NCBI RefSeq assembly: GCF_002423035.1 | Contig: NZ_DIUM01000070.1 | Coordinates: 48,056-112,055, forward strand | DNA from: Thiocapsa sp. UBA6158 | Lineage (GTDB): Bacteria; Pseudomonadota; Gammaproteobacteria; Chromatiales; Chromatiaceae | Direction of reading: 5' to 3' | DNA length: 64,000 nucleotides | Notes under the pieces: generated by a model | What the model saw: only the letters and a program-made list of their open reading frames with translations | Told to the model about the DNA's origin: nothing | Database searches by the model: none | Made by a program: the position numbers and the translations under genes | In this document: piece after piece, positions 4,261-42,074 of the stretch | How the letters are laid out: the number at the start of each line of letters is the position of its first letter | Numbering within the stretch: the first letter of the stretch is position 1

Positions 4261-4938
4261 TCAGGGGTTCGTTCCGGTCTCCGCCACCTCGACCATGACC
4301 TCGTTTCGCCGCATGAACCAGAGCGAGAAGGGCGAGTTGTAACGCGCATAGACGGGCGCGGCGACGGGCTTCAGGCCGGCCGATTCGACGGCACGCAGGA
4401 GTCCTCTCTCGTTTTCCCGATAGCTCTTTTCGGTCCAGCGTCCGGAATAGCGCCGCACCGCCATCAGCTTGCCGGGCTCTTCACGCAACCGCACCCGCGG
4501 GTCGACCGGCTCGGGCAGGGTGTCCAGCGTAAACCGATCCGGCATGACGAAGCTGACCACGAAGGTCTCGCCCTCGGTCCCGCTCGCCGGGCGCTGTACA
4601 ACGGGCGCGGTCATCTCGATGCGCTCGCCCTCGCCCGCCGCCGGCCGCTGGCTGACCGGCGCCGTCATCTCGATCTTGGTATCCGCGCGATTGTCTCCGA
4701 AGATGTAGCCGGCAAGGATGCGAAACGCCTGATTCCCGGCCTCGTCGAAGGGGCCGGCGACTTCGGTCTCGGCAACCGCATAGGACGGATAACGGCGTAG
4801 CTCGAAATCGGGAAAGGTTCGAACGACCGTGTAGTTGGGTTCCTCGACCGCCATCGCTTCGATCACTCCGAACGCCATGAGAAGGGCGCACACCAGGGTC
4901 GTGGTCGTGCGCAGGGTCTTGAATCTTGATCCGGTCAT
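4261..4938 (-). CDS. SOUL haem-binding family protein (secreted)
   Basis: Signal-like N-terminus (MTGSRFKTLRTTTTLVCALLMAFGVIEAMA). The EEPNYTVV..FELRRY start and the two IEMTAPV repeats are typical of SOUL/HEBP proteins. Confidence 0.8.
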   Translation of the reverse strand: MTGSRFKTLRTTTTLVCALLMAFGVIEAMAVEEPNYTVVRTFPDFELRRYPSYAVAETEVAGPFDEAGNQAFRILAGYIFGDNRADTKIEMTAPVSQRPAAGEGERIEMTAPVVQRPASGTEGETFVVSFVMPDRFTLDTLPEPVDPRVRLREEPGKLMAVRRYSGRWTEKSYRENERGLLRAVESAGLKPVAAPVYARYNSPFSLWFMRRNEVMVEVAETGTNP

Positions 4939-5016
4939 CGCAGGTGCCTCTTGTTCCCGGTATCGGGGGTTGACTGTTGGCACGGCCCGGTCTCGACATC
5001 GCCCGGACCAAGGTGT

Positions 5017-6090
5017 TCACCTTGTTTCTGAATCGTCGCTTTCGGCGGGTCGTTCGGGCAGATCCGGCGGATGGAGCTGGAAAGCCCGCCGGATCAATTC
5101 CGGATCATCGACCCGAATGACGAGCTGAAAGCGACCTCCCGGCCCGACGCGATAAGGGTGTCCGTAGAGGTCGATCAGCGTGCCGGGTGCGGCACAGCCG
5201 TTGATGCGCAGCTCGGCCTCGATCAACAGCTCGGTGCCGCCGGGCGTCGGCTGGCCGTAGCGCATCGGCGCGGTCGGCGATGGGCTCGCGCGCCGCTCGG
5301 CGGGATGAGCGGGCTCGGGGATGGTGTCTTCGCCCCATGGTGCAGAGACGTCCTCGCGTGGCGCCGGGGCTTCCGAATCGGGATCCGGCGACCTGATCGG
5401 CGATTGACCGACGCGATCGGGCTGTATCGGGATCTCGGCGACCAGCGTGACCTCGCGGTCCGGAACACGGCCGAACTCGTGACCGGGACCCAGATCAAGG
5501 CCCGCACGCAGTCGGGCCAAAACGTCGACGGCGCGGATTCCGGGCTGCTCGGCAACGACAGATCGCGTGCCGAGCGGCTCGCGTGCCGTTGAGGACGGCG
5601 TCGCTGCCGCTCCCGACTTCGGAGGATCGGTCCCCGGCGTCGCAGCCGGCGCCGGTGCCTCGATCAGCGCATCGGAGGGTGCCCTGATCCTCTCGACGGT
5701 CGGGAAGCGGACATCGACCCGCGCGCCGTGATCAAGGACGTTGGATCGGGCGAGCATCACCCAACCGCCCGACGCATCGCTCAGACCCAACTCGGCGTCG
5801 TAACGCGCCGGCCGCGCATCGACCGAAAAGACGTGCTCCCCGTGGCCACCCGGGCTGCGCAGCTGCAGGGCGATTTCTTCCACCTGCGTTGTGCCGTCGG
5901 CATGAAGGCGCCGCAGACGCAGCACGGGCGCCGCCTTGGCGCCGCCACGTCCGAAACCGGCTGCCGCGGGGATAAGATCGTCGCCCGAGAGGCGCCAGAA
6001 GGCGCAGAGTCCGCCCTCCCCTGCGCTCGCCAACACGAGATGCGTCCCGCGCTCGCGTAAGGGGAATCGTGGTACCAGCGTCCGTTTCAC
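5017..6090 (-). CDS. DUF4912 domain-containing protein
   Basis: 357 aa. The N-terminal 130 aa (LCAFWRLSGDD...VLRLRRL...ALQLRSPGG..YDAELGL) resembles the DUF4912 module usually found beside GH57 genes. It has a low-complexity Pro/Ala linker. The GTG start overlaps the GH57 stop (GTGA). Confidence 0.6.
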   Translation of the reverse strand: MKRTLVPRFPLRERGTHLVLASAGEGGLCAFWRLSGDDLIPAAAGFGRGGAKAAPVLRLRRLHADGTTQVEEIALQLRSPGGHGEHVFSVDARPARYDAELGLSDASGGWVMLARSNVLDHGARVDVRFPTVERIRAPSDALIEAPAPAATPGTDPPKSGAAATPSSTAREPLGTRSVVAEQPGIRAVDVLARLRAGLDLGPGHEFGRVPDREVTLVAEIPIQPDRVGQSPIRSPDPDSEAPAPREDVSAPWGEDTIPEPAHPAERRASPSPTAPMRYGQPTPGGTELLIEAELRINGCAAPGTLIDLYGHPYRVGPGGRFQLVIRVDDPELIRRAFQLHPPDLPERPAESDDSETR

Positions 6091-7322
6091 TGCGCGAGAC
6101 CGCCTGAACTAAGCCCGTTCGCATCCGCCCGGGACGCCTGCGTGAGCGTGAGCGCGATCTGCGCCTCGTCCAATGCGAGCGACGCGTCATGGGTCCGTGC
6201 GTGCAGATGCGGGATCCAGGAATCGCCCCAAAAGAGAAAACAGCTGGTTTCGGCCTCGAGGATCAAACGACGGGCGCGCGCGAGGTGCTCGCAGCACCGA
6301 GCGGTCGCGTCCGCAGATCCACGCTTGATCTGCCAGTAGCGGGCACTCAACTGCGCAACCTCCGCGACGGCTTCGCGTTGGCGCTCGCTGCCCGCCCACC
6401 GGGAGAGATCCTCCCCGGAGGTGGATCCGACGTTCCATGCGCCGGTCTGGACCTGCGCGTGGGCGGTCGGCGTCACCCGACCGAGATAGTCTGCCAGACG
6501 GACCGGGATGATCGGGCAGGTCCCGTCGCGCACCTGCTCCATATAAGGCGCGAAGAAATGGCCGAAGAATCCGGATGGCTCGTGGGTCTGGCGAAACCAG
6601 CCGCCGTTCTCGCCGTCCGACCAGGTCGTGACCAGTCGTCTCTCGTCCGGCCGCGGCGAGCCTGCGGTCCGCCACAAGACCTCGTCGCGAAACCAACGCG
6701 GATTCAGCCCGCTCTCTTGGGCGTTGGAGACCTCGCGATCGCGCGGGACGACGCTGATGCAGACACCCTCGTGGCAAGCGATATAAGGGCGAAAGATATC
6801 GCTGATGCCGTCCTCGGGGCGCACATGCACGCCGTCGACGACCACGTAGTCGTAGCCGGCCTGCACCAGCGCGGGGATCATGGCCATGGTGAAGGCCATC
6901 TCCGGGGGCCAAAAGCCGCGCGGGGCGCGACCGAAGACCTGCTCCATCCGTGTCCGCCCCAAGGCAAGCTGCTCGGACCAATCGGCATGCGGGATCAGGG
7001 GGAAGATGGGGTGGGAGTAGCCCATGCCGATCAGCTCGATATTATCGGCCTCGCGGTAGCGCGCGAGCATCTCCGGGATATCGACGATGTGACGATACCG
7101 ATCGACGATTTCGGGATCGAGGAGCTGCTCGAGCAAGACACCTGAGAAACCGACATGAAGCCGGGCGACGTCGCGATACTGCAGGGCATAGCACGGCACG
7201 CGCTCGTAGCACCTGATGATCTCCTCGGCCTCCCAAGGATTGGCATCGATCAGGAGGCGCAGGTTTCCGGGCGGCTGGTGCATGTGCAACCCGAGGGCGT
7301 GATGGATGTCGGTCCGAGTCAT
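6087..7322 (-). CDS. glycoside hydrolase family 57 protein
   Basis: 411 aa. N-terminal LGLHMHQPPGN (HxHQP) and the downstream IELIGMGYSHPIFPLIP and WPPEMAF motifs are characteristic of GH57 alpha-glucan enzymes. Confidence 0.85.
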   Translation of the reverse strand: MTRTDIHHALGLHMHQPPGNLRLLIDANPWEAEEIIRCYERVPCYALQYRDVARLHVGFSGVLLEQLLDPEIVDRYRHIVDIPEMLARYREADNIELIGMGYSHPIFPLIPHADWSEQLALGRTRMEQVFGRAPRGFWPPEMAFTMAMIPALVQAGYDYVVVDGVHVRPEDGISDIFRPYIACHEGVCISVVPRDREVSNAQESGLNPRWFRDEVLWRTAGSPRPDERRLVTTWSDGENGGWFRQTHEPSGFFGHFFAPYMEQVRDGTCPIIPVRLADYLGRVTPTAHAQVQTGAWNVGSTSGEDLSRWAGSERQREAVAEVAQLSARYWQIKRGSADATARCCEHLARARRLILEAETSCFLFWGDSWIPHLHARTHDASLALDEAQIALTLTQASRADANGLSSGGLAQ

Positions 7323-12171: not shown

Positions 12172-12174
12172 GAT

Positions 12175-30210: not shown

Positions 30211-30216
30211 TAAATT

Positions 30217-30263
30217 TGGAGCGGGAAACGAGATTCGAACTCGCGACCCCAACCTTGGCAAGG
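30217..30263 (-). repeat. att site: duplicated 3' 47 nt of tRNA-Gly (distal island junction)
   Basis: tggagcgggaaacgagattcgaactcgcgaccccaaccttggcaagg is identical at all 47 positions to 42000-42046. Identity ends abruptly at 30264. Confidence 0.9.
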
Positions 30264-30356
30264 AGATTGCTACCTTATTGACCACGGCGATACACGGAAA
30301 GATTAGCACGCGAGCGGCTCGGAGCAACACGGAATTACGCGGACCCTCCGCGAATG

Positions 30357-30488
30357 TGCGCAGAAAACTAAGCCCCTCTCTCCCTGGAAATGTCGGGAAG
30401 TCGGGAAGGTAGGGTTAACCCATTGCCTTGATTGAGAAAATACCTTCCCGACAGGGCTTTTCGGGTCGGGAGGATAAGTCGGGAAGGT
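30357..30488. repeat. iteron cluster A; about 130-bp copy of 36767-36896
   Basis: Near-identical to the segment downstream of the replicase gene, with a handful of mismatches. GTCGGGAAG cores at 30392, 30401 and 30478 (forward) and 30443-30452 (reverse), plus a degenerate copy at 30465. Confidence 0.85.
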
Positions 30489-30497
30489 TGGCGACCT

Positions 30498-30599: not shown

Positions 30600-30624
30600 C
30601 GGAGGGCTAACTACAGGGGTGTGG

Positions 30625-30906: not shown

Positions 30907-31031
30907 CGATCGGGCTCCGGGTGTGCCCGGGCATGCCGGGCGGGTTGGCGTGCGTCTGGATCCGAACCACGCAAGGGACTGGATCGGCAGACCCGCCACG
31001 CGGGCGGGTCTCGGGTTGAGCTCGAATCAGC

Positions 31032-31271: not shown

Positions 31272-31319
31272 TCGTCCTTGCTCCTTGAGGTTGCGCCCGG
31301 CCGATGCCGGGCGGGTTGG

Positions 31320-31544
31320 TCAGTCTTGCAGGTCCAGCGGATCGAAGTCTTCTGCTCCGCCCTCGAATCGCGCGAAGGCGATGCACTGCTCGTCGGTCGC
31401 GTCATGCCCTCCCGGCCTGAAGAAGTTGCCCGCGAAGACGAACGCCCGGCCGTTGCGCTCGAACATTTTGAAGGATGTCGCAGGCTTGCCCCGCAGATTC
31501 ACGCGGGTCTTGTCCTCGATCCTGTAGTTCTCCACGTCGGTCAT
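31320..31544 (-). CDS. hypothetical protein (island cargo)
   Basis: 74 aa, MTDVENYRIEDKTRVNLRGKPATSFKMFERNGRAFVFAGNFF. SD GAGGG. ATGA overlap with the upstream ORF. Confidence 0.55.
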   Translation of the reverse strand: MTDVENYRIEDKTRVNLRGKPATSFKMFERNGRAFVFAGNFFRPGGHDATDEQCIAFARFEGGAEDFDPLDLQD

Positions 31545-31726
31545 GACCTTGCCCTCATTGCTCCGATCTGCGAAAGAAACTCGATGTCTTCCCGTGCCGG
31601 GTGATCCGGTGCGCAGAAAATAAGCGCGATGCTTGCTGAAAACAGCCGATCCGCTACCTCGTTCCACCGTTCCAGGTGCCATACCCCGCCGACGATCGCA
31701 TCTATCATGTGCTCGCTGTCGCTCAT
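31541..31726 (-). CDS. hypothetical protein (island cargo)
   Basis: 61 aa. SD GAGGAG 8 nt upstream. ATGA overlaps at both ends. Confidence 0.5.
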   Translation of the reverse strand: MSDSEHMIDAIVGGVWHLERWNEVADRLFSASIALIFCAPDHPAREDIEFLSQIGAMRARS

Positions 31727-32160
31727 GCCGCCTGCTCCTCAGCGGCGAGCTGGTCGACGGCCGTGATGATTGCCGCCTTCGCCTTCAGTCGGGCGGCGGC
31801 GATGCGCTCCTCCCGAGCCAGCGCGGCGGCTTGCTCGGCTTCGCGTTCGGCGATGCTGGCGTCCAGTGCGATGCTCAACAGACCGGCGGCGACTTCCGCG
31901 GCCGTCTCCCCCGTATCGGCGGCGATGCGGGCCAGGGTCGTTTCGCGTTCGGCGGTCGCAACCTCGTTGAAGGCGTCGGCGAACTCGAGTAAGCGGCTCG
32001 ACAGCAGGTGTGCCGCAGTCGCGATGCCTGACAGGCGATCGCGCTCGAAAGGTGTGTCGTCCAGCCCGCTTTCTTCGATGTCGAGCGTCCGGTTCAAGCC
32101 TTGCAGCGCCCACGCCAGTTGCCAAAGCTCACTCATGCCGCTGAATTGTGTTGCGCTCAT
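31723..32160 (-). CDS. hypothetical protein, Ala/Glu-rich helical (island cargo)
   Basis: 145 aa. SD GGAGG 7 nt upstream. ATGA overlap with the upstream ORF. Confidence 0.55.
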   Translation of the reverse strand: MSATQFSGMSELWQLAWALQGLNRTLDIEESGLDDTPFERDRLSGIATAAHLLSSRLLEFADAFNEVATAERETTLARIAADTGETAAEVAAGLLSIALDASIAEREAEQAAALAREERIAAARLKAKAAIITAVDQLAAEEQAA

Positions 32161-32477
32161 GAGCTCGCCTCCATCGGGGTCAATCCTGCATGGGCTCGGG
32201 TCGCCAAGCGGGTCAGTTCGGCGGCGCGACCGTCCGGGGCGGTCGTGACCATGTGCAGGATAGCGTCATGCCATCGGTGCGCGGCGACGACATCGGCGGC
32301 GCGCACGGGGTCACAGCGTAAGCCGTAGCGCACGACTCCGAAGAGTTGATGTGACAGGGCGATGCCCTTGTGAGCGAAGTCATCGCCGTCGATCGGCTTG
32401 CCGCAGCGCTGCATCTCGCCGACGAGATCGCGCGCGAGGAGGATGATGGATCGGCTCGGCTGGCGTTTACCTTCCAT
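32157..32477 (-). CDS. hypothetical protein (island cargo)
   Basis: 106 aa from MEGKRQPSRSIILLARDLVGEMQRCG. SD GGGAGG. The longer track ORF (to 32651) lacks coding character. Confidence 0.5.
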   Translation of the reverse strand: MEGKRQPSRSIILLARDLVGEMQRCGKPIDGDDFAHKGIALSHQLFGVVRYGLRCDPVRAADVVAAHRWHDAILHMVTTAPDGRAAELTRLATRAHAGLTPMEASS

Positions 32478-32715
32478 GTCGGCGACCTCCCAAGATCGAA
32501 CGGCGGCGGCGAACGCCGATAAACCGCAGCGCGGCTTCGATGCGAGCCAGTAGGGCCCGGGCCTCGGACAGCTCCCGGCCTTGCATGCCGGACAGGCACC
32601 AGGCGACGGACGCGCGAAGAGTGCGCAGTGTGCGATGGTCTCGACGCGCAAGGGCGTCTGATGTCATGCGGTGCCAAGTCGGCACGCGCAGTGATATATC
32701 ATGGCTGGTAGCCAT
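32467..32715 (-). CDS. hypothetical basic protein (island cargo)
   Basis: 82 aa. SD GGAGG 7 nt upstream of the ATG at 32715. 11-nt overlap with the next ORF. Confidence 0.45.
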   Translation of the reverse strand: MATSHDISLRVPTWHRMTSDALARRDHRTLRTLRASVAWCLSGMQGRELSEARALLARIEAALRFIGVRRRRSILGGRRHGR

Positions 32716-32795
32716 TGCCGAACCTCCGTTACAGGTTGGTGATGGTCAGGCATCCTCGGGCGTTGGCGCGCCCCTGGATGCCGATCTCCTCTACT

Positions 32796-32981
32796 TCACT
32801 TCGTCTTCGCGGTTCTCTTCCCCTCCCTCAGTTTCTTGCAGATGTCTCGGACCAGCGGTCTCGACTCCGCAGGCACCCACTCCGTAACCGACACGAACCC
32901 TTCGGCTCGCATCCGATCCCGCCATTCAGCCATGCGGACGCGGGTCGGTTTCCGTTTCTCGGTATCGGTAACATGTGACAT
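32796..32981 (-). CDS. DUF3018-like (MazE-family antitoxin-like) small protein
   Basis: KPTRVRMAEWRDRMRAEGFVSVTEWVPAESRPLV resembles the DUF3018 pattern (RVRxxRxRxRAxGLRPVQIWVPD). No MazF-like partner is adjacent. Confidence 0.5.
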   Translation of the reverse strand: MSHVTDTEKRKPTRVRMAEWRDRMRAEGFVSVTEWVPAESRPLVRDICKKLREGKRTAKTK

Positions 32982-33334
32982 ATGCCGAGTGTAACAGCGT
33001 GCGGACGGAAGTCTACATACCGTTCGTCGGTTTTTGCGCTCGGCGATGGATCCTCAAGGGTGCGCGCAAGGTGGCGTCGGCGCTGGTGATTTCTGCGGGT
33101 GCAGTCGGAAGGCATGACCCGATCCAGGTTGGGTTCGGTCTCTCCCTGAATCTCGCTTTCCGCTTCGGTCTCGACAGGCGATTCAGTGGATTCAGGCGTT
33201 GCTTCCTGGGTGTTTTGGGGTTCAGGTACTTCTTCAGTGTCGGTTTCTTTGATGTAAGAAACCTCATCAAAGTACCGATCGCCCCATGACTTAACGTCAA
33301 GACGGAAGCGCTGTGGGCTGCGGCTGTCGCACAT
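32828..33334 (-). CDS. hypothetical acidic protein (uncertain; conflicts with 32796-32981)
   Basis: From MCDSRSPQRFRLDVKSWGDRYFDEVSYIKETDTEEVPEPQNTQEATPESTESPVETEAESEIQGETEP. Locally low GC. The 3' third overlaps the DUF3018-like ORF in another frame and looks non-coding. Confidence 0.3.
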   Translation of the reverse strand: MCDSRSPQRFRLDVKSWGDRYFDEVSYIKETDTEEVPEPQNTQEATPESTESPVETEAESEIQGETEPNLDRVMPSDCTRRNHQRRRHLARTLEDPSPSAKTDERYVDFRPHAVTLGICHMLPIPRNGNRPASAWLNGGIGCEPKGSCRLRSGCLRSRDRWSETSARN

Positions 33335-33654
33335 GTCCAAGGCGTCGGAAGGCGTGACCTGATCCAGGAGGGGTTCGGGTCTCCTTGCGGATAAGGAGAG
33401 CGGACATCGGCGAACCCATGCGCAGATGTCGCGGCTCAAGGTTGAGCCGTGAGATTGCCCGGGCTCACTGCGCAGCGCTGCGCAGTGAGCGCAACCGGGG
33501 CACGGCACGGGTCAAGCGGGCGGTGCGGTCATCCTGAAGCGCGTAGAGCGGGCGCGCTTCGCGTTGACGGCCGCGGGCGGGGGCGGTGGGTCCAACATGC
33601 CGGCCAGGACCGTTGCGCGCTGCAGCGGCTTCCGGGTGGTCGCAGGCTTGCGGA

Positions 33655-33897
33655 TCAAGGCGGCGTATCGGGGCATCGGTCAATCCTCTCGGCTCGGCGG
33701 GGCGGTGGGACCAGGCGCAGATGTGACCGGCGGGCGGCGGCGCGGGCCTCCCGGTCGAGCCGGGCCTGCTCCGCTCGGAACCAGGACCGGAACAGCTCGA
33801 CGGCGGTGTCTTCGTCGGTCATGCGCACGTCGAACCCGCCCGAGTCGTTGGCGGCGAGCAGCAGCCCGTCAAGGTGCAGGGTCAGGGCGGGGTTCAT
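33655..33897 (-). CDS. hypothetical protein (island cargo)
   Basis: 80 aa from MNPALTLHLDGLLLAANDSGGFDVRMTDEDTAVELFRSWF. Weak SD. 29-nt overlap with the upstream ORF. Confidence 0.35.
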   Translation of the reverse strand: MNPALTLHLDGLLLAANDSGGFDVRMTDEDTAVELFRSWFRAEQARLDREARAAARRSHLRLVPPPRRAERIDRCPDTPP

Positions 33898-34189
33898 CGG
33901 CGTCTGTTCGTCGTGCGCGGTGCGCGGCGGCCTCGATGGCGGCCGCTCGGGTGATGGTCTCGAGTGTGCTGTAACGGAATCGACATCCAAGGCACTTGCG
34001 GCGGCGCCTGATGGCGTCGGCGCCGGCTTGGCGGGTCTCCAGTACTGCCGTGTGTTCAGACCCGCAGAGGGGGCAAGATGCGCTCAATGTACGGCCTCGG
34101 TGGTGGGTGCCGACTTTGCGACCGGGTCGGCGCCGGGAGGCCGCGGAGGAAGTCGCGACCTCGCAGCCGTCCAAAACTGCCCGCGCCAA
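33869..34189 (-). CDS. NrdR-type zinc-ribbon protein lacking the ATP-cone (Ogr/Delta-like size)
   Basis: CPLCGSEHTAVLETRQAGADAIRRRRKCLGCRFRYSTLE parallels the NrdR N-terminus (CPFCxxxDTKVIDSRxxxxGxxIRRRRxCxxCxxRFTTFE). A more likely start is TTG 34087, which has a GAGG SD and gives 72 aa beginning MSASCPLCG. Confidence 0.55.
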   Translation of the reverse strand: MARAVLDGCEVATSSAASRRRPGRKVGTHHRGRTLSASCPLCGSEHTAVLETRQAGADAIRRRRKCLGCRFRYSTLETITRAAAIEAAAHRARRTDADEPRPDPAP

Positions 34190-34192
34190 GAA

Positions 34193-34660
34193 TCAGGCAG
34201 CGATCCGGCCGAGATCGGGCGCCAAAACAACAGTAGGATCCGCATCGCCGCGTCGAACGATCGGCGTCGGCGAGCTGCGAATCGCGCGCTCTTCCTCGAT
34301 TTCCAGGCTACGCAGCTCCGCGTCGAGCTCGGCGAGGCGGCGGCGCCGGTCTGCGGCGCTGATGCCGGGCTCGGGATGTGCCTCGAAGGCAATCGCGGCG
34401 AGCCGTGCGGCGGTGCGCTCGAAGTCCAGCGCGGCGACGATCGAAAGCACGTCGATCCTGGATGCGGCGTGACTCGTCAAGTCGGTTTTGCCTTTGCGCA
34501 GCCGGGAGGGGTTAAGGATGTCCCGGCCGCGCTCGGCAAGGTGCTCGACCTCGGCGGCGATGCTTTCGGCCGCTTCGGCTTGGGCGGGCCACTCGCGTTC
34601 CACGGCTTTGCGCTCGGCTTGCAGGGCGGTGATGCGGTCGCGGATTTTCTCAATGGTCAT
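34193..34660 (-). CDS. hypothetical coiled-coil protein (island cargo)
   Basis: 155 aa from MTIEKIRDRITALQAERKAVEREW. ATGA overlap with the upstream ORF. Confidence 0.5.
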   Translation of the reverse strand: MTIEKIRDRITALQAERKAVEREWPAQAEAAESIAAEVEHLAERGRDILNPSRLRKGKTDLTSHAASRIDVLSIVAALDFERTAARLAAIAFEAHPEPGISAADRRRRLAELDAELRSLEIEEERAIRSSPTPIVRRGDADPTVVLAPDLGRIAA

Positions 34661-34917
34661 GCGATGGTTCCGATGATGTAGATGTTGCTGTTGTCGCTGC
34701 GGCGCTTCGCCGGCAGGCGTGCCCACGCGCGACCTCGCAGCCCGTCGCGGCGGAAGATGTCGCCTCCGCGCACCCATAGCCCACGCGCTGTCGGCGCCGG
34801 TTCGCTGTCGCTGAAAATCACCTCGAAGCCGTCCACGCCATCGCACTGACACGCGAAATCGAGCGAGGCGCCGGCGATCTCCGTATAAGCCGCAGTCAGG
34901 GGCACGGGGTCAGCCAT
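34657..34917 (-). CDS. hypothetical protein (island cargo)
   Basis: 86 aa, MADPVPLTAAYTEIAGASLDFACQCDGVDGFEVIF. 8-nt overlap upstream and ATGA downstream. Confidence 0.45.
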   Translation of the reverse strand: MADPVPLTAAYTEIAGASLDFACQCDGVDGFEVIFSDSEPAPTARGLWVRGGDIFRRDGLRGRAWARLPAKRRSDNSNIYIIGTIA

Positions 34918-35314
34918 TGGCGATGCGCCCGGTGTTGTCCTCCAGCCATTCCTCGCACGCGGTCAGCAGCTTGATTTGCGGCTTCCAGGCGGCTTGCGCG
35001 GACTCGATCGCCGTTTCCAGCTCGGCTAGGCGCTGCTCGACCATCTTCAGGTCAATTCGGGCGCCGGCTAGCTTCGGGTCTTCGGGCGTGCCGGGCACAC
35101 GAGGATTGCGCTGCAGGTCCACTCCCCATTGGGCGATGTACCGCGCAAGGTCTTGGCGCTCTTGGTGCAGCGCGAGGCGTTCGCCGATCAGCCCGGACAG
35201 GGCAGCGTGCGCGCCCTTGGCGGCGCGTCGCAGCTCCCGCAAGCGCATCTCGTAGGGCTCGAGCTTGGCGGCTCGGGCTTGCTTCTGAGCAAGCGTCAAT
35301 GGTGCCGAGATCAT
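34910..35314 (-). CDS. hypothetical helical protein (island cargo)
   Basis: 134 aa. SD GGAGG 9 nt upstream. ATGA overlap with the upstream ORF. Confidence 0.5.
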   Translation of the reverse strand: MISAPLTLAQKQARAAKLEPYEMRLRELRRAAKGAHAALSGLIGERLALHQERQDLARYIAQWGVDLQRNPRVPGTPEDPKLAGARIDLKMVEQRLAELETAIESAQAAWKPQIKLLTACEEWLEDNTGRIANG

Positions 35315-35703
35315 CGCTGAAAGCCTCCGCGATCCGGCCGCACAATCCGCGATCGCGGCGCGCTCATGTCCACGTCGCGCGCGGGTCCACCGGTGCGGCC
35401 TGACGACAGGGCTTTTTCGAGTGCTTCCATCGCGCGCATTTGCGCGTCAGTAGTCCCGGACGCAGAGGGGCCGGCCTGGTTGGCGCGGTGCGGCTCGTTG
35501 GCGGCGATCTGCGCGAGGGCTTCGTCCATCTCGGCTTGCTGCTCGGCGGACATCTTGCGCGGCGTTGGATAGTGGCCTGCGGTGATCTCGGGGCCGATCG
35601 CTGCGCCGACGGCGAGCGCGACCGGCCGATGTTTGATGATGCTGTTGTCGATCATGTTCGTGTCCGGTGTTTGGAGTGCGGACATTTTCAGCCGACGAAT
35701 CAA
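35311..35703 (-). CDS. hypothetical protein (island cargo)
   Basis: Up to 130 aa. The TTG at 35703 overlaps the upstream stop (TTGA). Alternative ATG starts at 35685 and 35655. Confidence 0.45.
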   Translation of the reverse strand: MIRRLKMSALQTPDTNMIDNSIIKHRPVALAVGAAIGPEITAGHYPTPRKMSAEQQAEMDEALAQIAANEPHRANQAGPSASGTTDAQMRAMEALEKALSSGRTGGPARDVDMSAPRSRIVRPDRGGFQR

Positions 35704-36293
35704 CCATCAAAACCGGGTGTTTGGTGTTCGGCGATAATGCGCTTCAGGTGCGTCGCGGATGTCGGAGCCGGTGCGCTGCTCAAGGCGAACCACAGCTCGC
35801 ACTGCAGAGGGCTAAGGCGTGCCGGTGGTTGTGCATGGTGCCGGGACCATCGCCAGGTGGACGCCTCGAACATCCCGATCTCGCTCGCCAGCTCACGGAT
35901 GCGCGCGGGGGTAGACGTGTCTTCGTTGAACGGGACCAGGGCGAAGGCGCGGCGGAGGTGCCGATCTCGACGGGAAAGGCGCTCGCGGGTCGCAAGGCTC
36001 GCGATGCCGCGGCCGCGGATGCCGAGACCCTCATCCAAGGTCGCCACAGCTCCGGTGGCCGCTAGGCGCAGCCCATCGGCGAGGAAAGCCGCGGCCTCCG
36101 GGTCGGTCCGGGCGGTCGCGGTGATCGCGCGGCGCAGCATGGCGAGCCCTTCATTCTGTTTCATATCGACAATCTCGATCCATAGCCAGTTGACATCGAA
36201 CATATCTGCTGCCGAGACCCTAAGCGACTGAAATCCTGTCGAAAACCGGGGCTCGAATTCCCCGCGGTTACGGCGGGGGTGCCGGGGTCCCAT
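35700..36293 (-). CDS. hypothetical protein (island cargo)
   Basis: Up to 197 aa. The start is uncertain (ATG 36293, 36203 or 36164). The coding-like part begins around MKQNEGLAMLRRAITATART. Confidence 0.45.
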   Translation of the reverse strand: MGPRHPRRNRGEFEPRFSTGFQSLRVSAADMFDVNWLWIEIVDMKQNEGLAMLRRAITATARTDPEAAAFLADGLRLAATGAVATLDEGLGIRGRGIASLATRERLSRRDRHLRRAFALVPFNEDTSTPARIRELASEIGMFEASTWRWSRHHAQPPARLSPLQCELWFALSSAPAPTSATHLKRIIAEHQTPGFDG

Positions 36294-36372
36294 CGCTGCT
36301 GAATCTTCCGAGAGAACATGCGGTTGCGAAACTCAGCCGAGCCCGTTGGATGCTGCATCGAAAGCATGACCC

Positions 36373-36747
36373 TCAAAACGCGGAAGTCAGCAGCCGGCCG
36401 ACGTGGTTCATGGTGTCGAGATCCACGTCGGCGGCGAACCGAACGGCCGCCCTACCCTGCTCATCTACGGCGACCTCCGTAACCGCGTCGGCGAGATCCT
36501 CCACCTCTAAGCAGAACCTCAGCTCGTCCACCGTCCACGGTTCCCGGCGCGTCACGGATCCAGGGCGAGCCTCACGCGGGTTTCGCGTCTGCTCGCTCTT
36601 GGCCCACTTCCGCGCGAACTTCATGCAGGTGGTTGCCTTCCCGATGACGAAGACCTTCCGAGCGGTCACACAGTAGTTCGTCGCGCTGGTGAAGGACTGA
36701 CAGTCGCAACAGCGGACCTGAGGGCGGTCATCATCCTTGCGGGCCAT
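36373..36747 (-). CDS. hypothetical Cys-containing protein, first gene after the iteron region
   Basis: 124 aa, MARKDDDRPQVRCCDCQSFTSATNYCV...TTCMKF. Strong SD GGGAGGG upstream of the ATG at 36747. Confidence 0.55.
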   Translation of the reverse strand: MARKDDDRPQVRCCDCQSFTSATNYCVTARKVFVIGKATTCMKFARKWAKSEQTRNPREARPGSVTRREPWTVDELRFCLEVEDLADAVTEVAVDEQGRAAVRFAADVDLDTMNHVGRLLTSAF

Positions 36748-36766
36748 GCCAAGCCCTCCCGGTGTG

Positions 36767-37011
36767 TGTGCAGAAAACTAAGCCCCTCTCTCCCTGGAAA
36801 TGTCGGGAAGTCGGGAAGGTATGGTTAACCCATTGCCTTGATTGATAAAACGCCTTCCCGACAGGGCTTTTCGGGTCGGGAAGGCAAGTCGGGAAGCGTG
36901 CCGTTACCCTTCCCGACTTTTGCAGCCTTCCCGACTTCCGAAAAACCATGTCGGGAAGGTCTAACCCCACGCCAGCCTTGAGCAAAACAGCAACCTTCCC
37001 GACTTCCCGAC
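36767..37011. promoter_or_regulatory. iteron cluster B (candidate replication origin) immediately 3' of the replicase gene
   Basis: Ten perfect GTCGGGAAG cores. Forward copies are at 36802, 36810, 36875, 36888 and 36950. Reverse copies are at 36854, 36909, 36927, 36995 and 37003. An 18-nt inverted pair, GTCGGGAAGTCGGGAAGG (36802-36819) and its complement (36994-37011), brackets an AT-richer core (TTAACCCATTGCCTTGATTGATAAAA). Confidence 0.7.
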
Positions 37012-37030
37012 TTTTCACAGATAACACCTA

Positions 37031-39883
37031 TTAACTTTCATGGAGAGCGGGGGAGGCTTCGTGTTCAGGCGATCCGCTCGGAAGCAACTGCCCTAGAGGC
37101 ATCCGCCACACACGATCGGGGGAGATGTTGGCCCGGTTATGCTTGTGCCCGATGTCGCGCCCCGAGCCCCGCTGCAGGAATCCGCGTTCGGCGAGCGCTT
37201 TCGCCAGCCGGTGTTGCGAACGCGGCGCCCCTGCTCCCTGGTCTCTGGCGAGCTTGGCAATCGCCGTATACGCGGCGGCTGGACTGAGCCAAAGCTGCGG
37301 GCCTAGGTCGTTGGCTTGGTCGACGAAGTAGCCGATCGGCTCCCCGAGTGCCTCGAATCGCTGCTCTACGCGCGGCTCCCCGTCTGGTCCCTCATTGCGG
37401 TGCATGTGAATGGTTGTTTTCCAGCCCAAGAGGTGTGATCGGGATACGGGCGGTTTCGACGCCGGCACTTGTGCTGCGTCGATGACGTGGACGCGACCGA
37501 GAGAGAATGCCGCCCTGAGTAGTTCCATCGCGCGAACGGCATCCTCCGAGGTTTCCTGCAGGTCGGCTTGAACCCTCGCTTGGTCCAGCAAGGCGCTTTT
37601 GCACCGCGATTCGAGATCGGCGGCGCGCTCCCGAGACAGCGCCCCGATGTCGAGCGCGAAGCGAAAGAAGACTTCGATCGAGAGACGCATTCCCGCCAAG
37701 TTGGCCGGGATGCGCTCATGGTCCCGAAGCTCCGAGCCGACTTCGGCGCGAAGCTCTTCGTAGCGGATCGGCAGTTCGGCTTCGAGCTGCTCCGCACGGG
37801 AGGCGATCCACCGCAGATATCCGGACATCGCGGCGGCGTAGATTCCCGCTCTGGCGTGACGCTGGCACTCGGTAAGGATGTCCAGCTCCATCGTCCCCGG
37901 GGTCAAGCTGAGAATCCACATTCGCGCCCGCAACGAACGCCCGGCCGGTAGGTCTTCACCGGATGCCGAGACCATGCCTCTCGGGTAGTAGGTCCGACGC
38001 AAGCGGGTGTCGGCGGTCATGCGCCCCCGGCCGGCTTGGTTGGCGGCGCCACGAAAGACGCGATCGGCCTTGATGCTCATGGCCTGTTGATCGCTCGCGG
38101 TCCCTTGAGGGTTGTAGTCGTCGATCTCGAACAAGGCATCCTTGATGCCGAACGCCTTTTTCATCATGGCGTTTTCGGTACTGGACCAGCTTTCGGGGAA
38201 GGACCGCGCATTCCAGCCCTGCCCATAGTGGGCCATCGCCAGGGCGGCGATCTCGGACTTGAAGGTCCCCGACCGGCCGTCTACGAAAACCCCGCAATCC
38301 TGCCGATACCATCCGCCGAGCGGCGGGCCGTAGATCCGCGCCAACTGGACGGCGCCCACGCCGTCGTTAACGAGCCGCATCTGGAGCAGCGATTTCCGCA
38401 CCGCGTCAACCAATGCCGGCGGTTCCGGTGGGTGCGGGAGGTGGTAGTTCATCAGGTTGTCTTCGAGCTCGACATCAATGTCGTCTCGGGCTCCATTCGC
38501 CGTGATCGCGCCTCCCGCGTGCAGGTAAACAAGCTCGCCGCCGATCTTCCTCCATCCCGTGTGGGTGTAGATTTGGCGTGTCACCATGTCTCGGCTGTAG
38601 GTCTGGATCGCCGCCCGCAGATGGTCACGGACGGATGACCCGGCCGTGACGACGTATTGATGACCGAGCTTGTTCGTGACCCACGCCATCCCGCTGAACT
38701 GTGCGGTCAGGATCTCCACGTCCACCGTTGAGACGCCACCCGCGGAGGGCCGATAAACCTTGAGCTGCGTTCGATGCTCGGTCTCCACGCCGTCGTCATA
38801 CAGGCGCTGCTCGGCGACCACGGCCGAAAAGTTGGCGAGCGGTATCCGCTTCTCGGTCGTCTCCCTGGATTCGCCGCGGCCTGTCGTGATGGTCCGCAAC
38901 TGGTAGAAAACCCCTTTAGACCAGACGTAGGGGCCGATCTGTTCATCCTCCGGGACCTCTTCGGGCTCGGGCTCCGGCTCCGCTGCGGGTGGCGGTCGTT
39001 CCTCCGCGTGACGGGCGCGCGGGTTCGCCCATCCGCACTTTTGCGCCTCAGCGAAGACAGCGCGGTAATCCAGCTCCGAGCCCTGGAAGCTGCGCCACTT
39101 GGCGGCGGCTTGTGCCGCGTCGAACTTCTCGGATGTCGCGCTCCAAGCGAGCCACAAGCCCCGGCCGATGTTGCCGTAAGCCGAGAGCGCGAGCCCCATC
39201 CGAACCCACGTTTCATAGGGGTCGGCGTCGATGGTAAAGAGGGCTTCGCGTAGCTCGGAGATTTGGCGCGGCTCAAGGGCATGCCGAGGTGTTGCTGTGG
39301 GCTCCGCTTCGCGACCCGATTCATGGCCGCGATGCAAAGGCGTCAGGGTGTCGCGAACAAAAGGGGCAAGGTCCTCAAGGTCGCCCCCGAGGGCCTCGCC
39401 GGTAACGGTGAAGTAGCGACCCCTGCAATACGCCTCGATCCCGGTCTTGTTTGAGCCCAAGCCCTCGAACGCGGAACCGTGGCCGATCGCGTGCACTCCC
39501 TTACCGGACGGCGACCGCTCCACGTAGCCCGGTAGGATGTCGATCAAAGCTGCAAGCTCGGACCGCTCCGCCGTGTTGTCTAGGTCGATCCCTTGCCAGA
39601 CGAGTCCGTCATCATCCGGACCGAGCGCAAATCCGAGCCCAGCGTATCCGCCACGCGCGACGGCGTGGACGGCTTCGTCCATCGTCACCAGGCAAGCCAG
39701 ATCCTCCGGACTGTCGAGCTTTCCGGATCGCTTCTTACCGTTGGCGTAGTACGGGACCTTTCGCGGCTTCGGTTTGGCCGGTATCAGCTTCCACACCAGC
39801 CAGCGCCGCGCGGCCTGCATGGTGGTGGGAATCTCAAGCTGGAGTGTTTCCAGGGGTGGCGGTGTCGGGGCGTCGTCACGCAT
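37031..39883 (-). CDS. replicase: bifunctional Prim-Pol + PriCT-2 + C-terminal P-loop (helicase-like) protein
   Basis: Prim-Pol motifs are present: RRWLVWK...KVPY, GIDLDN, SPSGKGVH, IEAYCRGRYFTVTG. A PriCT-2 block follows (WVRMGLALSAYGNIGRGLWLAWSATSEKFDAAQAAAKWRSF), then a Walker-A-like GRSGTFKS at about residue 570. Confidence 0.85.
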   Translation of the reverse strand: MRDDAPTPPPLETLQLEIPTTMQAARRWLVWKLIPAKPKPRKVPYYANGKKRSGKLDSPEDLACLVTMDEAVHAVARGGYAGLGFALGPDDDGLVWQGIDLDNTAERSELAALIDILPGYVERSPSGKGVHAIGHGSAFEGLGSNKTGIEAYCRGRYFTVTGEALGGDLEDLAPFVRDTLTPLHRGHESGREAEPTATPRHALEPRQISELREALFTIDADPYETWVRMGLALSAYGNIGRGLWLAWSATSEKFDAAQAAAKWRSFQGSELDYRAVFAEAQKCGWANPRARHAEERPPPAAEPEPEPEEVPEDEQIGPYVWSKGVFYQLRTITTGRGESRETTEKRIPLANFSAVVAEQRLYDDGVETEHRTQLKVYRPSAGGVSTVDVEILTAQFSGMAWVTNKLGHQYVVTAGSSVRDHLRAAIQTYSRDMVTRQIYTHTGWRKIGGELVYLHAGGAITANGARDDIDVELEDNLMNYHLPHPPEPPALVDAVRKSLLQMRLVNDGVGAVQLARIYGPPLGGWYRQDCGVFVDGRSGTFKSEIAALAMAHYGQGWNARSFPESWSSTENAMMKKAFGIKDALFEIDDYNPQGTASDQQAMSIKADRVFRGAANQAGRGRMTADTRLRRTYYPRGMVSASGEDLPAGRSLRARMWILSLTPGTMELDILTECQRHARAGIYAAAMSGYLRWIASRAEQLEAELPIRYEELRAEVGSELRDHERIPANLAGMRLSIEVFFRFALDIGALSRERAADLESRCKSALLDQARVQADLQETSEDAVRAMELLRAAFSLGRVHVIDAAQVPASKPPVSRSHLLGWKTTIHMHRNEGPDGEPRVEQRFEALGEPIGYFVDQANDLGPQLWLSPAAAYTAIAKLARDQGAGAPRSQHRLAKALAERGFLQRGSGRDIGHKHNRANISPDRVWRMPLGQLLPSGSPEHEASPALHES

Positions 39884-40094
39884 GGGTGAAGAACTCCCGC
39901 GTCACCGTAACGCTGTACCGGGCTCGCCGGCCGTCGCGCAGACGCACCGTAACGCCAGACACGGCGACGGTCTCGGGGAGAACGCCGGTCGTCTCGGCGT
40001 ATTTCATGAGGGCATTCTGCAGCCCGGATCCGAGCGATTGCCTCAGCGGCGCGTGTCGGTTCCGGGGCGGTTTTGGCAAGGTTGGGGTGGGCAT
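39876..40094 (-). CDS. hypothetical small basic protein upstream of the replicase
   Basis: 72 aa from MPTPTLPKPPRNRHAPL. SD GGAGG. 8-nt overlap with the replicase start. Confidence 0.45.
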   Translation of the reverse strand: MPTPTLPKPPRNRHAPLRQSLGSGLQNALMKYAETTGVLPETVAVSGVTVRLRDGRRARYSVTVTREFFTHA

Positions 40095-40290
40095 GTGATC
40101 GGCCTCCAAGCATGTGGACGGCCAACCGCGCAAAGACGGGAGCAGACACGACAGATGCACCGCGGGCGCGGTATCATCATCATGCCGGTGCACCTTTGGC
40201 TTTGATCGGTCGGTGCTTAAACGTCGCGGTCGGACTTGCAGGTCCTCCGCGAACGGCTCACAACATAATTGATCGAGGCGATAACATCCA

Positions 40291-40331
40291 GACCGACCGG
40301 GGCGCAATCCCGGCCGGTCTTTCTGTTTCCG
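40291..40331 (+). terminator. terminator-like hairpin oriented on the plus strand inside an all-minus-strand island
   Basis: GACCGACCGGGG-CGCAAT-CCCGGCCGGTC (one mismatch) followed by TTTCTGTTTCC. It lies in a 268-bp ORF-free gap (40095-40362). Confidence 0.4.
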
Positions 40332-40362
40332 CTCCATCGGTCGCTCGTCTTGGCGCGCCGGC

Positions 40363-40869
40363 TCATAGCTGGCCACCTTCCCTGATCCGCTCGAGCGCAT
40401 CCCGAACAAGCTCTTCCGCCAGGTCGTTCGCGGCGGATCCGCGCGCGCTGGCCATGGCTCGAAGGGCGTCCGCCTCGCTGGGCTTCATCCACACACTCAG
40501 CTCTACAACGCCTTCAGGATCCGCTACAGCTTCCGGCGGAACCGCCGGAACCGTTTCTTTTTTGCCACCCAACTCGACAACGCCATCGGGCTCGGTCGCG
40601 GGGGCAGGTGCGTTTTGCAGATCCTCCGCTTTCTGCGCTTCGTCGCGGATGATCTCCAGGACCTTCGTGGCGAGCCCGGGACCGCACAGAGAGCCGCTCG
40701 CCCCGGGACGAGGGATATATTCGCCGCTGGCTACAAGTTCCGCGCGATGCTTCCGAATGAACCACTCGAACGACGAGTAGCTCTTGAAGATCGAGCCGCC
40801 TTTCTCGGCGACCCATTGGCGCATCGTTCGCCAATCTGACAAATCGACGTGAACGGGTTGGGATTGCAT
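40363..40869 (-). CDS. hypothetical protein with C-terminal ribbon-helix-helix-like segment
   Basis: 168 aa. SD GGAGG 7 nt upstream. The C-terminus LSVWMKPSEADALRAMASARGSAANDLAEELVRDALERI looks CopG/Arc-like. There is an internal repeat EPDGVVEL / DPEGVVEL. Confidence 0.55.
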   Translation of the reverse strand: MQSQPVHVDLSDWRTMRQWVAEKGGSIFKSYSSFEWFIRKHRAELVASGEYIPRPGASGSLCGPGLATKVLEIIRDEAQKAEDLQNAPAPATEPDGVVELGGKKETVPAVPPEAVADPEGVVELSVWMKPSEADALRAMASARGSAANDLAEELVRDALERIREGGQL

Positions 40870-41024
40870 GAACTGGCCTCCGAAAGTTCGCCACCACGGC
40901 GTGTTTCAGCAGGCTAAGTTGTTTTTCATACTGTTCAAGCTGCTTTTGCTGAAACCGACCCGAAGCGTCGTGGAACCCCTCACTTCGTCGGTCGGTTTCT
41001 TGTCGGGCGGGTGTTGCGATGTCT

Positions 41025-41906
41025 CTAGCCGAACACGCGATCCACCACGTCGAGCTTGTCGGATGCGTTGGCGTGCATGTAGCGCGCGCTCGCGCTCAAG
41101 GTGCGGTGTCCCATGACGGCCATGATGGCGGCCTGATTGACCCCGGAGGTTGCCATCGCATGCCCGCAGCCGTGGCGCAGTTGATGGAAGTTGCGACCCG
41201 GCAGACCCGCCTCGGTGCAGACGCGAATCCAGAGACGGCGGAACCCGAACGGGCGCCCCTCGCTACCCTCGAAGACCAGGGCATCCGGTTGCTTCCCCGG
41301 CAGCAGGCGCAGTGCATCGGCCGCACGCGCGGAGAGTGCGGAGACCTGGGGCCGGCCGTTCTTGGTCTTCAGTACGGTGATGGTGCGGCGCTCAAGGTCC
41401 ACGTCGCCCCATCGAAGGGTCATGAGATTGCCGACGCGCAACCCGGTGTGAAAGGCAACCAGGACCAGGGCAGACAGCTTGCCCCATCGGGTGTCGAGTA
41501 GACGGGTGACGGCAAGGATACGCTCGACCTCCTCCGCGCGAAGGTATCGGTTCGGGTCGGCGGGCTCGGGGGATTTCTCCACGCCGCGCGTCGGGGGCAC
41601 ATGGGCACGGGGCAGCAGACGCAGGCGTCGAGCGTATTTGAAGACGGAGGCGAGTTGCGAGACGTAGCGGTTATAGGTGGCGCCGGACATGGGCGCGCCG
41701 GCCGGCTCGGTGGCTTGACCGCGGCGGGGCACCAGGCGCCCGCGTTCGGCGAGCCGAACAAGCGCAAGGTCCACGTCGTCGGCGGTGATCTCGGCGAGAT
41801 CCCGAGAGCCGAGCGACTCATCCCAAAACGCGAGACGGGCCAGGGTTCCCCGGTCGAATTCGCGCGACGCGACGAACGCGTCAATGGTCACGGAAAGTGT
41901 AGGCAT
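41025..41906 (-). CDS. int: tyrosine-type site-specific integrase
   Basis: 293 aa. The catalytic pattern is present: AFHTGLRVGN (R), HQLRHGCG (HxxR), MGHRTLSASARYMH (H...Y). It lies 93 bp from the tRNA-Gly 3' end. Confidence 0.9.
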   Translation of the reverse strand: MPTLSVTIDAFVASREFDRGTLARLAFWDESLGSRDLAEITADDVDLALVRLAERGRLVPRRGQATEPAGAPMSGATYNRYVSQLASVFKYARRLRLLPRAHVPPTRGVEKSPEPADPNRYLRAEEVERILAVTRLLDTRWGKLSALVLVAFHTGLRVGNLMTLRWGDVDLERRTITVLKTKNGRPQVSALSARAADALRLLPGKQPDALVFEGSEGRPFGFRRLWIRVCTEAGLPGRNFHQLRHGCGHAMATSGVNQAAIMAVMGHRTLSASARYMHANASDKLDVVDRVFG

Positions 41907-41999
41907 AAAACTTGCTCCGAGTGCAAAACGATCAGAACCGTGAACTGATCGCCGTGGCGGCGCACTTTCGGAAGCAATTTCAAGCGCTTAGGGTTGAAT

Positions 42000-42046
42000 T
42001 GGAGCGGGAAACGAGATTCGAACTCGCGACCCCAACCTTGGCAAGG
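42000..42046 (-). repeat. att site: 47-nt core within the intact tRNA-Gly (proximal island junction)
   Basis: Identical to 30217-30263. Confidence 0.9.
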
Positions 42047-42074
42047 TTGTGCTCTACCACTGAGCTATTCCCGC
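42000..42074 (-). tRNA. tRNA-Gly (anticodon GCC)
   Basis: The reverse complement is GCGGGAATAGCTCAGTGGTAGAGCACAACCTTGCCAAGGTTGGGGTCGCGAGTTCGAATCTCGTTTCCCGCTCCA. It has a 7-bp acceptor stem, D loop, anticodon loop CTTGCCAAG, T arm GTTCGAATC and an encoded CCA. Confidence 0.95.

Follow-up and report, generated by a model that had tools for sequence, protein, structure and literature searches.

Replication origins of satellite-like elements

Staphylococcal pathogenicity islands (SaPIs) replicate from origins in which 6–12 iterons lie directly downstream of rep, with at least two opposed iterons on each side of an AT-rich region (PMC9371898). Their Rep protein reads the iterons through a C-terminal winged helix, binds and melts the origin independently of ATP, and loads itself as a helicase (PMC9371898). 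In the phage-inducible chromosomal islands (PICIs) of Gram-negative bacteria, two sets of iterons flank an AT-rich region, and a cloned pri-ori segment replicates a plasmid (PMC6092414). Here we analyze a locus of this kind in Thiocapsa sp. UBA6158, within a stretch of 64,000 nt that we call the window (assembly GCF_002423035.1, contig NZ_DIUM01000070.1, positions 48,056–112,055 of the forward strand). An 11.8-kb element integrated at a tRNA-Gly gene encodes a 950-aa replicase, Pri-Rep, and directly 3' of this gene carries an array of ten short repeats that is probably the vegetative replication origin of the element.

Features of the locus also recall other replicons. In the annotated record of satellite P4 (NC_001609; 11.6 kb), the gene for the alpha primase-helicase (4636..6969) is followed directly on its 3' side by crr (4291–4590, by attP), which comprises ten repeats of 8 nt in either orientation; a second iteron cluster, ori (9086–9809), is about 4.8 kb away. 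The alpha protein combines a DnaG-type primase with a superfamily 3 (SF3) helicase (PMC2777425). In the archaeal plasmid pRN1, the origin lies just downstream of the plasmid's own prim-pol (primase–polymerase) and helicase gene and a large stem-loop is possible, there are no iterons, and specific binding by ORF904 was not detected (PMC4234260). In staphylococcal cassette chromosome mec (SCCmec), the primase is a separate polypeptide (PMC9371898).

An iteron array downstream of the replicase gene

A previous sequence-only reading of the window had noted that a 9-mer, GTCGGGAAG, occurs five times forward and five times in reverse just 3' of the replicase open reading frame (ORF). The exact positions confirm this: there are exactly ten copies in 36802–37011 (Table 1), beginning after a gap of 20 nt from the replicase stop codon. 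The chance expectation for these ten copies in 210 bp is 0.003 (Poisson P ∼2e-32). The whole window contains 15 copies compared with 0.95 expected, and when 100 dinucleotide-preserving shuffles of the 64-kb window were used as the background model, none reached 15 and none had more than three. Allowing one mismatch adds few sites beyond the clusters. Across the ∼52 kb outside the element there is a sole copy, at 5699, which matches the chance expectation of 0.95; therefore, within the window at least, the word is not a host repeat of the repetitive extragenic palindromic (REP) kind. The earlier reading noticed no copy outside the array other than 5699; there are, in addition, four exact copies and one with a single mismatch at 30392–30486, in a half-array near attR that we refer to as copy A.

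When read in the orientation of the replicase, the sites run FF-spacer 1-R-F-F-R-R-F-spacer 2-RR, where F is forward and R is reverse. Their 9-nt core is invariant across all ten, and the sites extend to about 12 bp, with A at −2 in eight of the ten, A or T at −1 in nine, and G at +9 in seven. At the level of sites, the array is a dyad centred at about 36900–36910, where the G + C content (GC, given as a fraction) is 0.63. The outer doublets (36802–36819 and 36994–37011) are perfect inverted repeats, as had been described, and the match stretches to 24 nt at 96% identity. As single-stranded DNA, the 236-nt array region could form one long hairpin (ΔG −78.6 kcal/mol; z = −12.6 relative to shuffled sequences).

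The AT-richer stretch that the same reading saw enclosed by the repeats, TTAACCCATTGCCTTGATTGATAAAA, is present: the 30 nt of spacer 2 with the lowest GC, at 36820–36849, have 0.33, compared with 0.65 for the window overall. Spacer 2 is the only AT-rich one of the two long spacers, which are paralogues arranged as direct repeats and not as mirror images (gttttNctcaaggc...ggggtta.ac, as read from the sequence). Spacer 2 is flanked by opposed sites, an F before it and RR after it, and divides the array into eight sites and two. This spacer is a candidate DNA-unwinding element. An additional AT-rich patch (GC 0.30) is located at the replicase stop codon. Beyond the distal doublet, a conserved leader extends into the ribosome-binding site (RBS) of the next gene and belongs to the 150-nt block that is duplicated in copy A. 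Rfam searches of the window and three relatives gave tRNAs only. Promoter and terminator scans covered both copies of the array: no sigma-70-like promoter was found around either, including the whole of 36300–37300, and the terminator scan gave one weak hit inside the array, at chance level.

A primase fused to an initiator helicase

The domain boundaries of Pri-Rep are listed in Table 1. Its N-terminal prim-pol matches PHROG DNA-primase families, with E-values down to 1.9e-30, and PriCT-2 is recognized at 9e-12. The N-terminus also matches, by sequence, the NrS-1 prim-pol (6a9w, 1.9e-11) and SaPI5 PriRep5 (7ola, 1.7e-7). The helicase is of the DUF927-related initiator type, with the Walker A motif GRSGTFKS, and distant sequence relatives that cover 59–65% of the replicase carry DUF927 (PF06048). 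An AlphaFold2 model built with 43 sequences (mean predicted local distance difference test score, pLDDT, 87.4) was compared with the Protein Data Bank (PDB) using Foldseek. For the C-terminal two thirds of the protein, this identified SCCmec Cch (5dgk; E 1.9e-13, template-modelling (TM) score 0.63 on the target) and SaPIbov1 Rep (8tch; E 8.9e-12, TM 0.62 on the target), both in alignments of ∼640 columns. D5/E5, AsfvPrimPol, MCM, and SV40 LTag were among the lower-ranked matches. Judged by its modelled fold, the 950-aa protein is a prim-pol fused to an initiator helicase of the SaPI-Rep/Cch type. The C-terminal domain (residues ∼795–935) is beta-rich and winged-helix-like in the model, and the last ∼70 residues are predicted to form a helix-helix-beta-hairpin (domain model pLDDT 82).

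In a separate observation, the best matches to the replicase on plasmids are the 'telomere-binding proteins' of actinobacterial plasmids (H1–H14, e.g. NC_008270 8259–9926). These are 25–30% identical to replicase residues ∼389–944 and are encoded at most ∼10 kb from the record end in large Rhodococcus plasmids.

Comparison with described replicons

The evidence supports placing the module, by fold, with the Pri-Rep-ori replicons of SaPIs and PICIs, and its layout resembles that of P4 alpha and crr. With the SaPI/PICI systems (SaPIbov1 Rep, SaPI1 Rep, SaPI5 PriRep5, and EcCICFT073) it shares a fused primase and, from the model, a self-loading initiator helicase of the Rep/Cch fold, iterons immediately 3' of rep in a number within the published 6–12, and opposed sites on both sides of an AT-rich stretch. 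The element has other PICI-type traits, namely a terminal integrase, a specific att site in tRNA-Gly, a size of ∼12 kb, which is within the ∼10–15 kb of PICIs, and no recognizable phage structural genes when its ORFs are searched against Pfam, PHROGs, NCBIfam, and PADLOC. There are also differences from the SaPIs. In place of their penta- or hexanucleotides, the window has sites of ∼12 bp with a 9-nt core; the AT-rich stretch is off-centre, its mirror position being occupied by a paralogous spacer that is richer in G + C; the replicase is ∼10% identical to SaPI Rep, with kinship visible at the fold level only; and the host has 65% GC. The proposal, made in the sequence-only reading, that this is a SaPI/PICI-like iteron origin is thus supported by the replicase fold, the published SaPI description, and the conserved layout and co-variation described below. 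Its statement that the layout is the same has to be qualified for the off-centre AT-rich stretch and for the second half-array near attR.

The likeness to P4 involves a primase-helicase with a C-terminal origin-binding domain (a predicted one in the window), ten short iterons, some in each orientation, immediately 3' of the gene for this protein, a second iteron cluster some kilobases away (6.4 kb in the window), and an almost equal element size. Unlike alpha, however, the window protein combines a prim-pol with a Rep/Cch-type helicase, and the array is a dyad where crr consists of two 120-bp direct repeats. The window element has no sid, psu, delta, or epsilon genes, a match to Ogr_Delta being sub-threshold, and its second cluster is not present in L016, the sole relative in which the whole element is covered. 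The pRN1-type archaeal plasmids, in which ORF904 unites prim-pol, SF3 helicase, and winged helix, are similar in having a multifunctional prim-pol-helicase, a 3' origin, and the possibility of a long hairpin; they differ from the window in the class of helicase and in the iterons that the window array has. SCCmec Cch/Cch2 provides the best structural match of the helicase part (5dgk) and likewise comes from an integrative element that encodes a replication initiator of its own, although in the window the primase is fused to the helicase. We know of no comparable iteron origin 3' of cch. Overall, the module follows the known SaPI/PICI-like origin design, of which it is a good but fairly ordinary example, and current understanding is not overturned by it.

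Conservation of the array and co-variation with the replicase

Nine relatives with full-length replicases, 45–96% identical to that of the window (L013–L020 and L026), were compared, and their contigs were fetched for analysis of synteny and arrays; the protein search graded full-length relatives at 96, 77, 61, 61, 58, 58, 47, and 45% identity. Gene order is the same in all: an integrase, small genes, the replicase, a gap, and further small genes. The gap directly follows the replicase stop codon, measures 270–460 bp in the nine, and contains no called gene on the replicase strand in any of them; in L018 there is a 63-aa call on the opposite strand only. Seven distinct relatives, with replicases 45–77% identical to that of the window, have complete arrays that begin 5–59 nt past the stop codon and span ∼210–255 bp. 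Their layout is FFRFFRRFRR or a near variant, and the arrays align position by position. The array of L013 (96%) is truncated and retains sites 1–5 only. In all nine relatives, the place and arrangement of the array are conserved. Spacer 2 has a GC of 0.31–0.42 in the six relatives measured (L014 is excluded), compared with 0.60–0.67 for the locus. The doublet period varies between relatives, being either 8 or 7 nt.

These observations bear on whether the motif could be a host-wide REP-like repeat, or the array a coding sequence, to which we give next to no probability. A 98-aa ORF (36731..37027) does cover the array on the replicase strand, and the host sequence inspected amounts to 64 kb. 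However, this ORF was rejected as coding on the grounds that the gap has no same-strand gene calls in the nine relatives and that doublet periods of 8 and 7 nt would shift the frame. As for a dispersed repeat, the stray copy at 5699 is what chance would provide, and a search for the iteron doublet in IMG/VR and JGI metagenomes gave seven matches, all isolated doublets without an array or a replicase homologue.

The repeat word itself differs between relatives (Table 1), and residues 913–919 of the replicase, in the predicted beta-hairpin, follow the word independently of overall identity (P0001–P0008). The segment is HKHNRAN in all elements with GTCGGGAAG, including P0006, which is 58% identical overall. 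It is HRHGRRN in the group with GTCGGAAG or TGTCGGAA (P0003–P0005, 58–61% identical), and (F/Y)(K/R)HGRS(H/W) with AGTGGGAA (P0007 and P0008). The helix that precedes it is conserved in all relatives aligned. From these alignments, residues 913–919 are a candidate specificity determinant for the iteron word. Furthermore, if a weak resemblance between the catalytic domains of the integrases is set aside, Rep is the one protein that the window detectably shares with L019. Some distant prim-pol replicases, which share the N-terminal part and have other C-terminal halves, also have their own bidirectional repeats (L002, L005, and L007), beginning within ∼25 nt of the replicase stop codons. No array was seen after the replicase in L001, L003, L006, or L021.

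The main rival explanation would make the array an operator or promoter of the cargo operon starting at 36747 on the minus strand, bound by a regulator of the element or by an autoregulating or insulating Rep. The array takes up all the space from the replicase stop codon to the RBS of the next gene, the conserved leader follows the distal doublet, the block in copy A would point towards attP and int once the element is excised as a circle, and the cargo includes an NrdR-like zinc-ribbon protein, all of which would suit such a role. Nevertheless, it is quite improbable. The scan of 36300–37300 detected no sigma-70-like promoter, and ten sites over 210 bp with a dyad and an AT-rich spacer exceed the usual needs of an operator. 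The site word tracks the C-terminal domain of Rep, the only protein common to all array-bearing relatives, whereas the cargo differs among relatives with the same array (L013 and L014 versus the window). Finally, unrelated prim-pol genes likewise have 3' arrays.

Other observations were made in the contigs of the relatives. A conserved non-coding element (GGGTCCTTCC ... CCGCTAGGGT ... CTATAGGCAACA) is located 3' of the arrays in several of them; in L013 and L014 it precedes a gene beginning M(P/G)KTQSDLSK. It is not found after the array of the window and has no Rfam match. The contig of L021 (34% identical) has two prim-pol replicase genes, at 2682–4913 and 10001–13249, one of the Prim-Pol/PriCT_1/DUF3987 type and one of the PriCT_2 type, and one of the two adjoins an integrase. 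They may belong to adjacent or nested elements, and the PriCT_2 gene is not followed by an iteron array.

A proposed model for initiation

We consider it likely that the array is the vegetative replication origin of the tRNA-Gly element because the replicase is of the SaPI-Rep/Cch class, relatives keep the array in the same place with essentially the same layout, changes in the repeat word go with changes in the C-terminal domain, and the arrangement fits published SaPI origins. By analogy with the SaPI systems, we infer that Pri-Rep of the element would bind the array, melt the spacer, load as a double hexamer, and prime synthesis. The element would first excise as a circle through its 48-bp att core. 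Pri-Rep would then recognize the ∼12-bp sites through its winged-helix-like C-terminal domain, and the ten sites, as two mirror-image sets of five, could place two helicase hexamers head to head. Opening of the duplex may occur at the 35-nt AT-rich spacer or else in the other AT-rich patch, next to the stop codon. The N-terminal prim-pol would lay primers from which a host polymerase continues, giving bidirectional theta replication.

Several observations weigh against this assignment. When residues 780–950 alone were used with Foldseek, nothing significant was found (best E 0.49). The weak top matches of the C-terminal domain (all E at least 0.49) are nearly all winged-helix proteins, among them Cdc6/Orc1 on origin DNA, ORC1, forkhead, and 8tch; on these matches and the pattern of secondary structure, the winged-helix assignment is likely but not established. 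There is no close replicase homologue on annotated plasmids or phages, where matches extend over at most 63% of the protein, and as a consequence autonomous replication by a pri-rep and array module is without a natural example. The co-variation of word and replicase amounts to three or four independent iteron classes only. None of the relatives' contigs has terminal overlaps that would suggest a circle. The AT-rich stretch departs from the published picture of SaPI origins in being off-centre, with site 8 on one side of it and the distal doublet on the other. Furthermore, the array is directly upstream of the next operon, and could thus have a regulatory role, alone or in addition.

As an origin, the array would provide a concrete candidate site and initiator for an uncharacterized family of tRNA-integrated elements, and would mark such islands as self-replicating elements with a satellite- or PICI-like lifestyle rather than inert ones. 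The relatives constitute a natural specificity series, in which three variants of the wing segment are paired with three iteron words. This series could show how self-loading helicases of the Rep/Cch type, so far studied only in staphylococcal elements, read their origins. In addition, pri-rep with a 260-bp origin might serve as a compact replicon for high-GC Proteobacteria.

A half-array near attR

Copy A corresponds to the distal half of the array, with sites 6–10 (four exact and one GTCGGGAGG), spacer 2, and the leader. Its edge is 80 nt from the attR core, and the block spans 80–230 nt from that core. It differs from the main array at 15 positions, one within the 44 nt of iteron cores and 14 within the 106 nt outside them (P = 0.033). 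L014, L015, and L016, the last being the only one of the three with its whole element covered, showed no second cluster, and copy A is consequently not known as a feature of the family.

Two independent truncations, to sites 1–5 in L013 and to sites 6–10 in copy A, break at most ∼15 bp from the centre of the dyad. Long palindromes are unstable in bacteria, and for this reason the breaks suggest that the centre of the array quasi-palindrome is a hot spot of recombination, deletion, or rearrangement. Copy A is most likely a remnant of rearrangement at this centre and not an obligatory second site. It would have come from exchange between related elements, which is consistent with its 10% divergence. 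The idea that the 6.4 kb between the array and copy A is a foreign insertion was rejected, as homologues of two ORFs there occupy matching places in relatives; this stretch is ordinary cargo of the family. When the 80-nt tail of copy A was compared with the leaders that follow the relatives' arrays, no convincing homology emerged.

Another interpretation would make copy A a working second Rep-binding locus of a bipartite origin and, in a broader version, would make the element a member of an unrecognized satellite family of high-GC Proteobacteria with wholly novel cargo. We regard this as unlikely. In its support, the cores of copy A are better preserved than the intervening sequence (one of the 15 differences), and the P4 record provides a precedent of two iteron clusters. 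The two clusters might cooperate through Rep-mediated looping, in the manner of P4 ori and crr, or handcuffing by copy A might instead hold copy number down. Its place just upstream of attP and int once the element is circular could couple replication to integration or to expression of int.

The position of copy A also raises the question of whether the sites are integrase arm-type sites, or excision-factor sites, for att recombination. A distance of 80–230 nt from the attR core is the usual location of arm sites, and the P4 repeats likewise crowd around attP. This explanation is extremely improbable: a distance of ∼5 kb separates the main array from both att ends, and the match of the 293-aa integrase is to the catalytic domain only, with no arm-type DNA-binding domain detected. 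The integrases of L016 and L019 (453–463 aa, with Arm-DNA-bind_3) are different, yet the array stays after rep in these elements and no cluster is found near the integrase or the ends.

The integrated element and its cargo

Table 1. Positions of the principal features in the window, with repeat words and conserved segments in related contigs (L numbers).
Feature	Position	Strand	Remarks
Pri-Rep gene, 950 aa	37031..39883	−	
Pri-Rep domains	residues ∼15–170; 212–280; ∼310–790; ∼795–935		prim-pol; PriCT-2; Rep/Cch-type helicase; C-terminal
Pri-Rep residues 913–919	37271–37291		in predicted C-terminal beta-hairpin
Iteron array, ten 9-nt cores GTCGGGAAG	36802..37011	unstranded	
GTCGGGAAG copies, + strand	36802, 36810, 36875, 36888, 36950	+	
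GTCGGGAAG copies, − strand	36854, 36909, 36927, 36995, 37003	−	
Spacer 1	36959..36994		36 nt, GC 0.56
Spacer 2, AT-rich	36819..36853		35 nt, GC 0.40; conserved (C)TTAACC motif seen in alignment
Leader beyond distal doublet (CATTTCCAGGGAGAGAGGGGC..TTTT(C/T)TG)	36754..36801	−	conserved in L014, L015, L020, copy A
Copy A	30344..30493		150-nt direct repeat of 36754–36903, 90% identical
Break regions of truncations	window 36888–36903; L013 4195–4215		
tRNA-Gly(GCC), integration target	42000..42074	−	att core 41999–42046
attR	30216..30263	−	exact 48-nt copy of tRNA-Gly 3' part
Tyrosine integrase, 293 aa	41025..41906	−	XerC/D-like; Pfam 1.2e-24
First ORF past array, 124 aa	36373..36747	−	no family match; opens ∼6-kb cargo block
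ORF next after 124-aa ORF	35700..36293		homologues in L014, L015
Repeat word GTCGGGAAG			window, L013, L014, L018
Repeat word GTCGGAAG			L015, L020
Repeat word TGTCGGAA			L016
Repeat word AGTGGGAA			L019, L026
Repeats after distant replicases			L002 GTAAAAAA; L005 CTGTCGCA/CAACTGTC; L007 CTTATGGA, TTCCAAAA
Conserved non-coding element	L013 4215–4340; L014 5570–5700; L016 7170–7245; L018 ∼5255–5285		

The integrated element extends over ∼30264–42046 and is bounded by tRNA-Gly and a 48-nt remnant of it. Along the minus strand, the order is tRNA, integrase, two or three small ORFs, the 950-aa gene, and the array, followed by small ORFs over ∼6 kb, a pair of hairpins, copy A, and, after a further 80 nt, attR. 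The integrase is 88% identical to that of L014. No AlpA or helix-turn-helix gene was found among the window ORFs between int and rep, a position at which L013 and L019 have a Phage_AlpA gene. Family searches of the cargo detected none of the packaging or capsid-redirecting genes terS, cpm, ppi, and rpp, and Stl, which with Str makes up the regulatory module of Gram-positive PICIs, as AlpA does in Gram-negative ones, was not detected either. As these searches gave no regulatory, packaging, or capsid-redirecting gene, the element is not assigned to the PICIs or to the P4-like satellites.

The cargo ORF at 33869–34189 (minus strand) encodes an NrdR-like zinc ribbon (PF22811, 3.1e-13) and is the only one in the cargo above a curated family threshold in the four databases. 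It also matches Ogr_Delta with an E-value of 0.0085 and 16.4 bits, below the Pfam cut-off of 26.3 bits. The protein may be a transcription factor of the element.

The composition of the cargo is relevant to the suggestion that a cargo protein binds the sites, which would then serve as a centromere for partition or as a pac/cos-like site for packaging. The parC locus of plasmid R1 has ten iterons bound by ParR, and ten short repeats in two sets of five have the look of a parC-type centromere; a novel adaptor could be among the downstream ORFs without assignable function. A site of this type is nonetheless very improbable here. The searches of Pfam, PHROGs, NCBIfam, and PADLOC revealed no ParA, ParM, or TubZ-type nucleoside triphosphatase, no small terminase subunit, and no HNH gene. 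In addition, relatives with identical arrays differ in the genes that come first downstream, and it is with Rep that the repeat word co-varies.

Further repeats are found within and beside the cargo. A 35-nt direct repeat (33104–33138 and 33344–33378; 89% identical, 240 nt apart) lies in the region of a 226-aa ORF (32828..33508). Between the last cargo gene and copy A there is a perfect palindrome of 18 + 18 nt at 30518–30553 (CTGTCCCAAAACGGAAGC/GCTTCCGTTTTGGGACAG), and likewise a second hairpin (ccgaaactcacgtgagtttcgg) at ∼30570–30600; these are probably bidirectional terminators that close the cargo operon. Abutting the outer edge of attR, some 12 tandem copies of the 8-bp unit GCTTTTGA are found at 30123–30218. 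They are preceded by a G + C-rich hairpin (30103–30129) whose arm has the same sequence, and look as if an arm of the original terminator of the tRNA had expanded.

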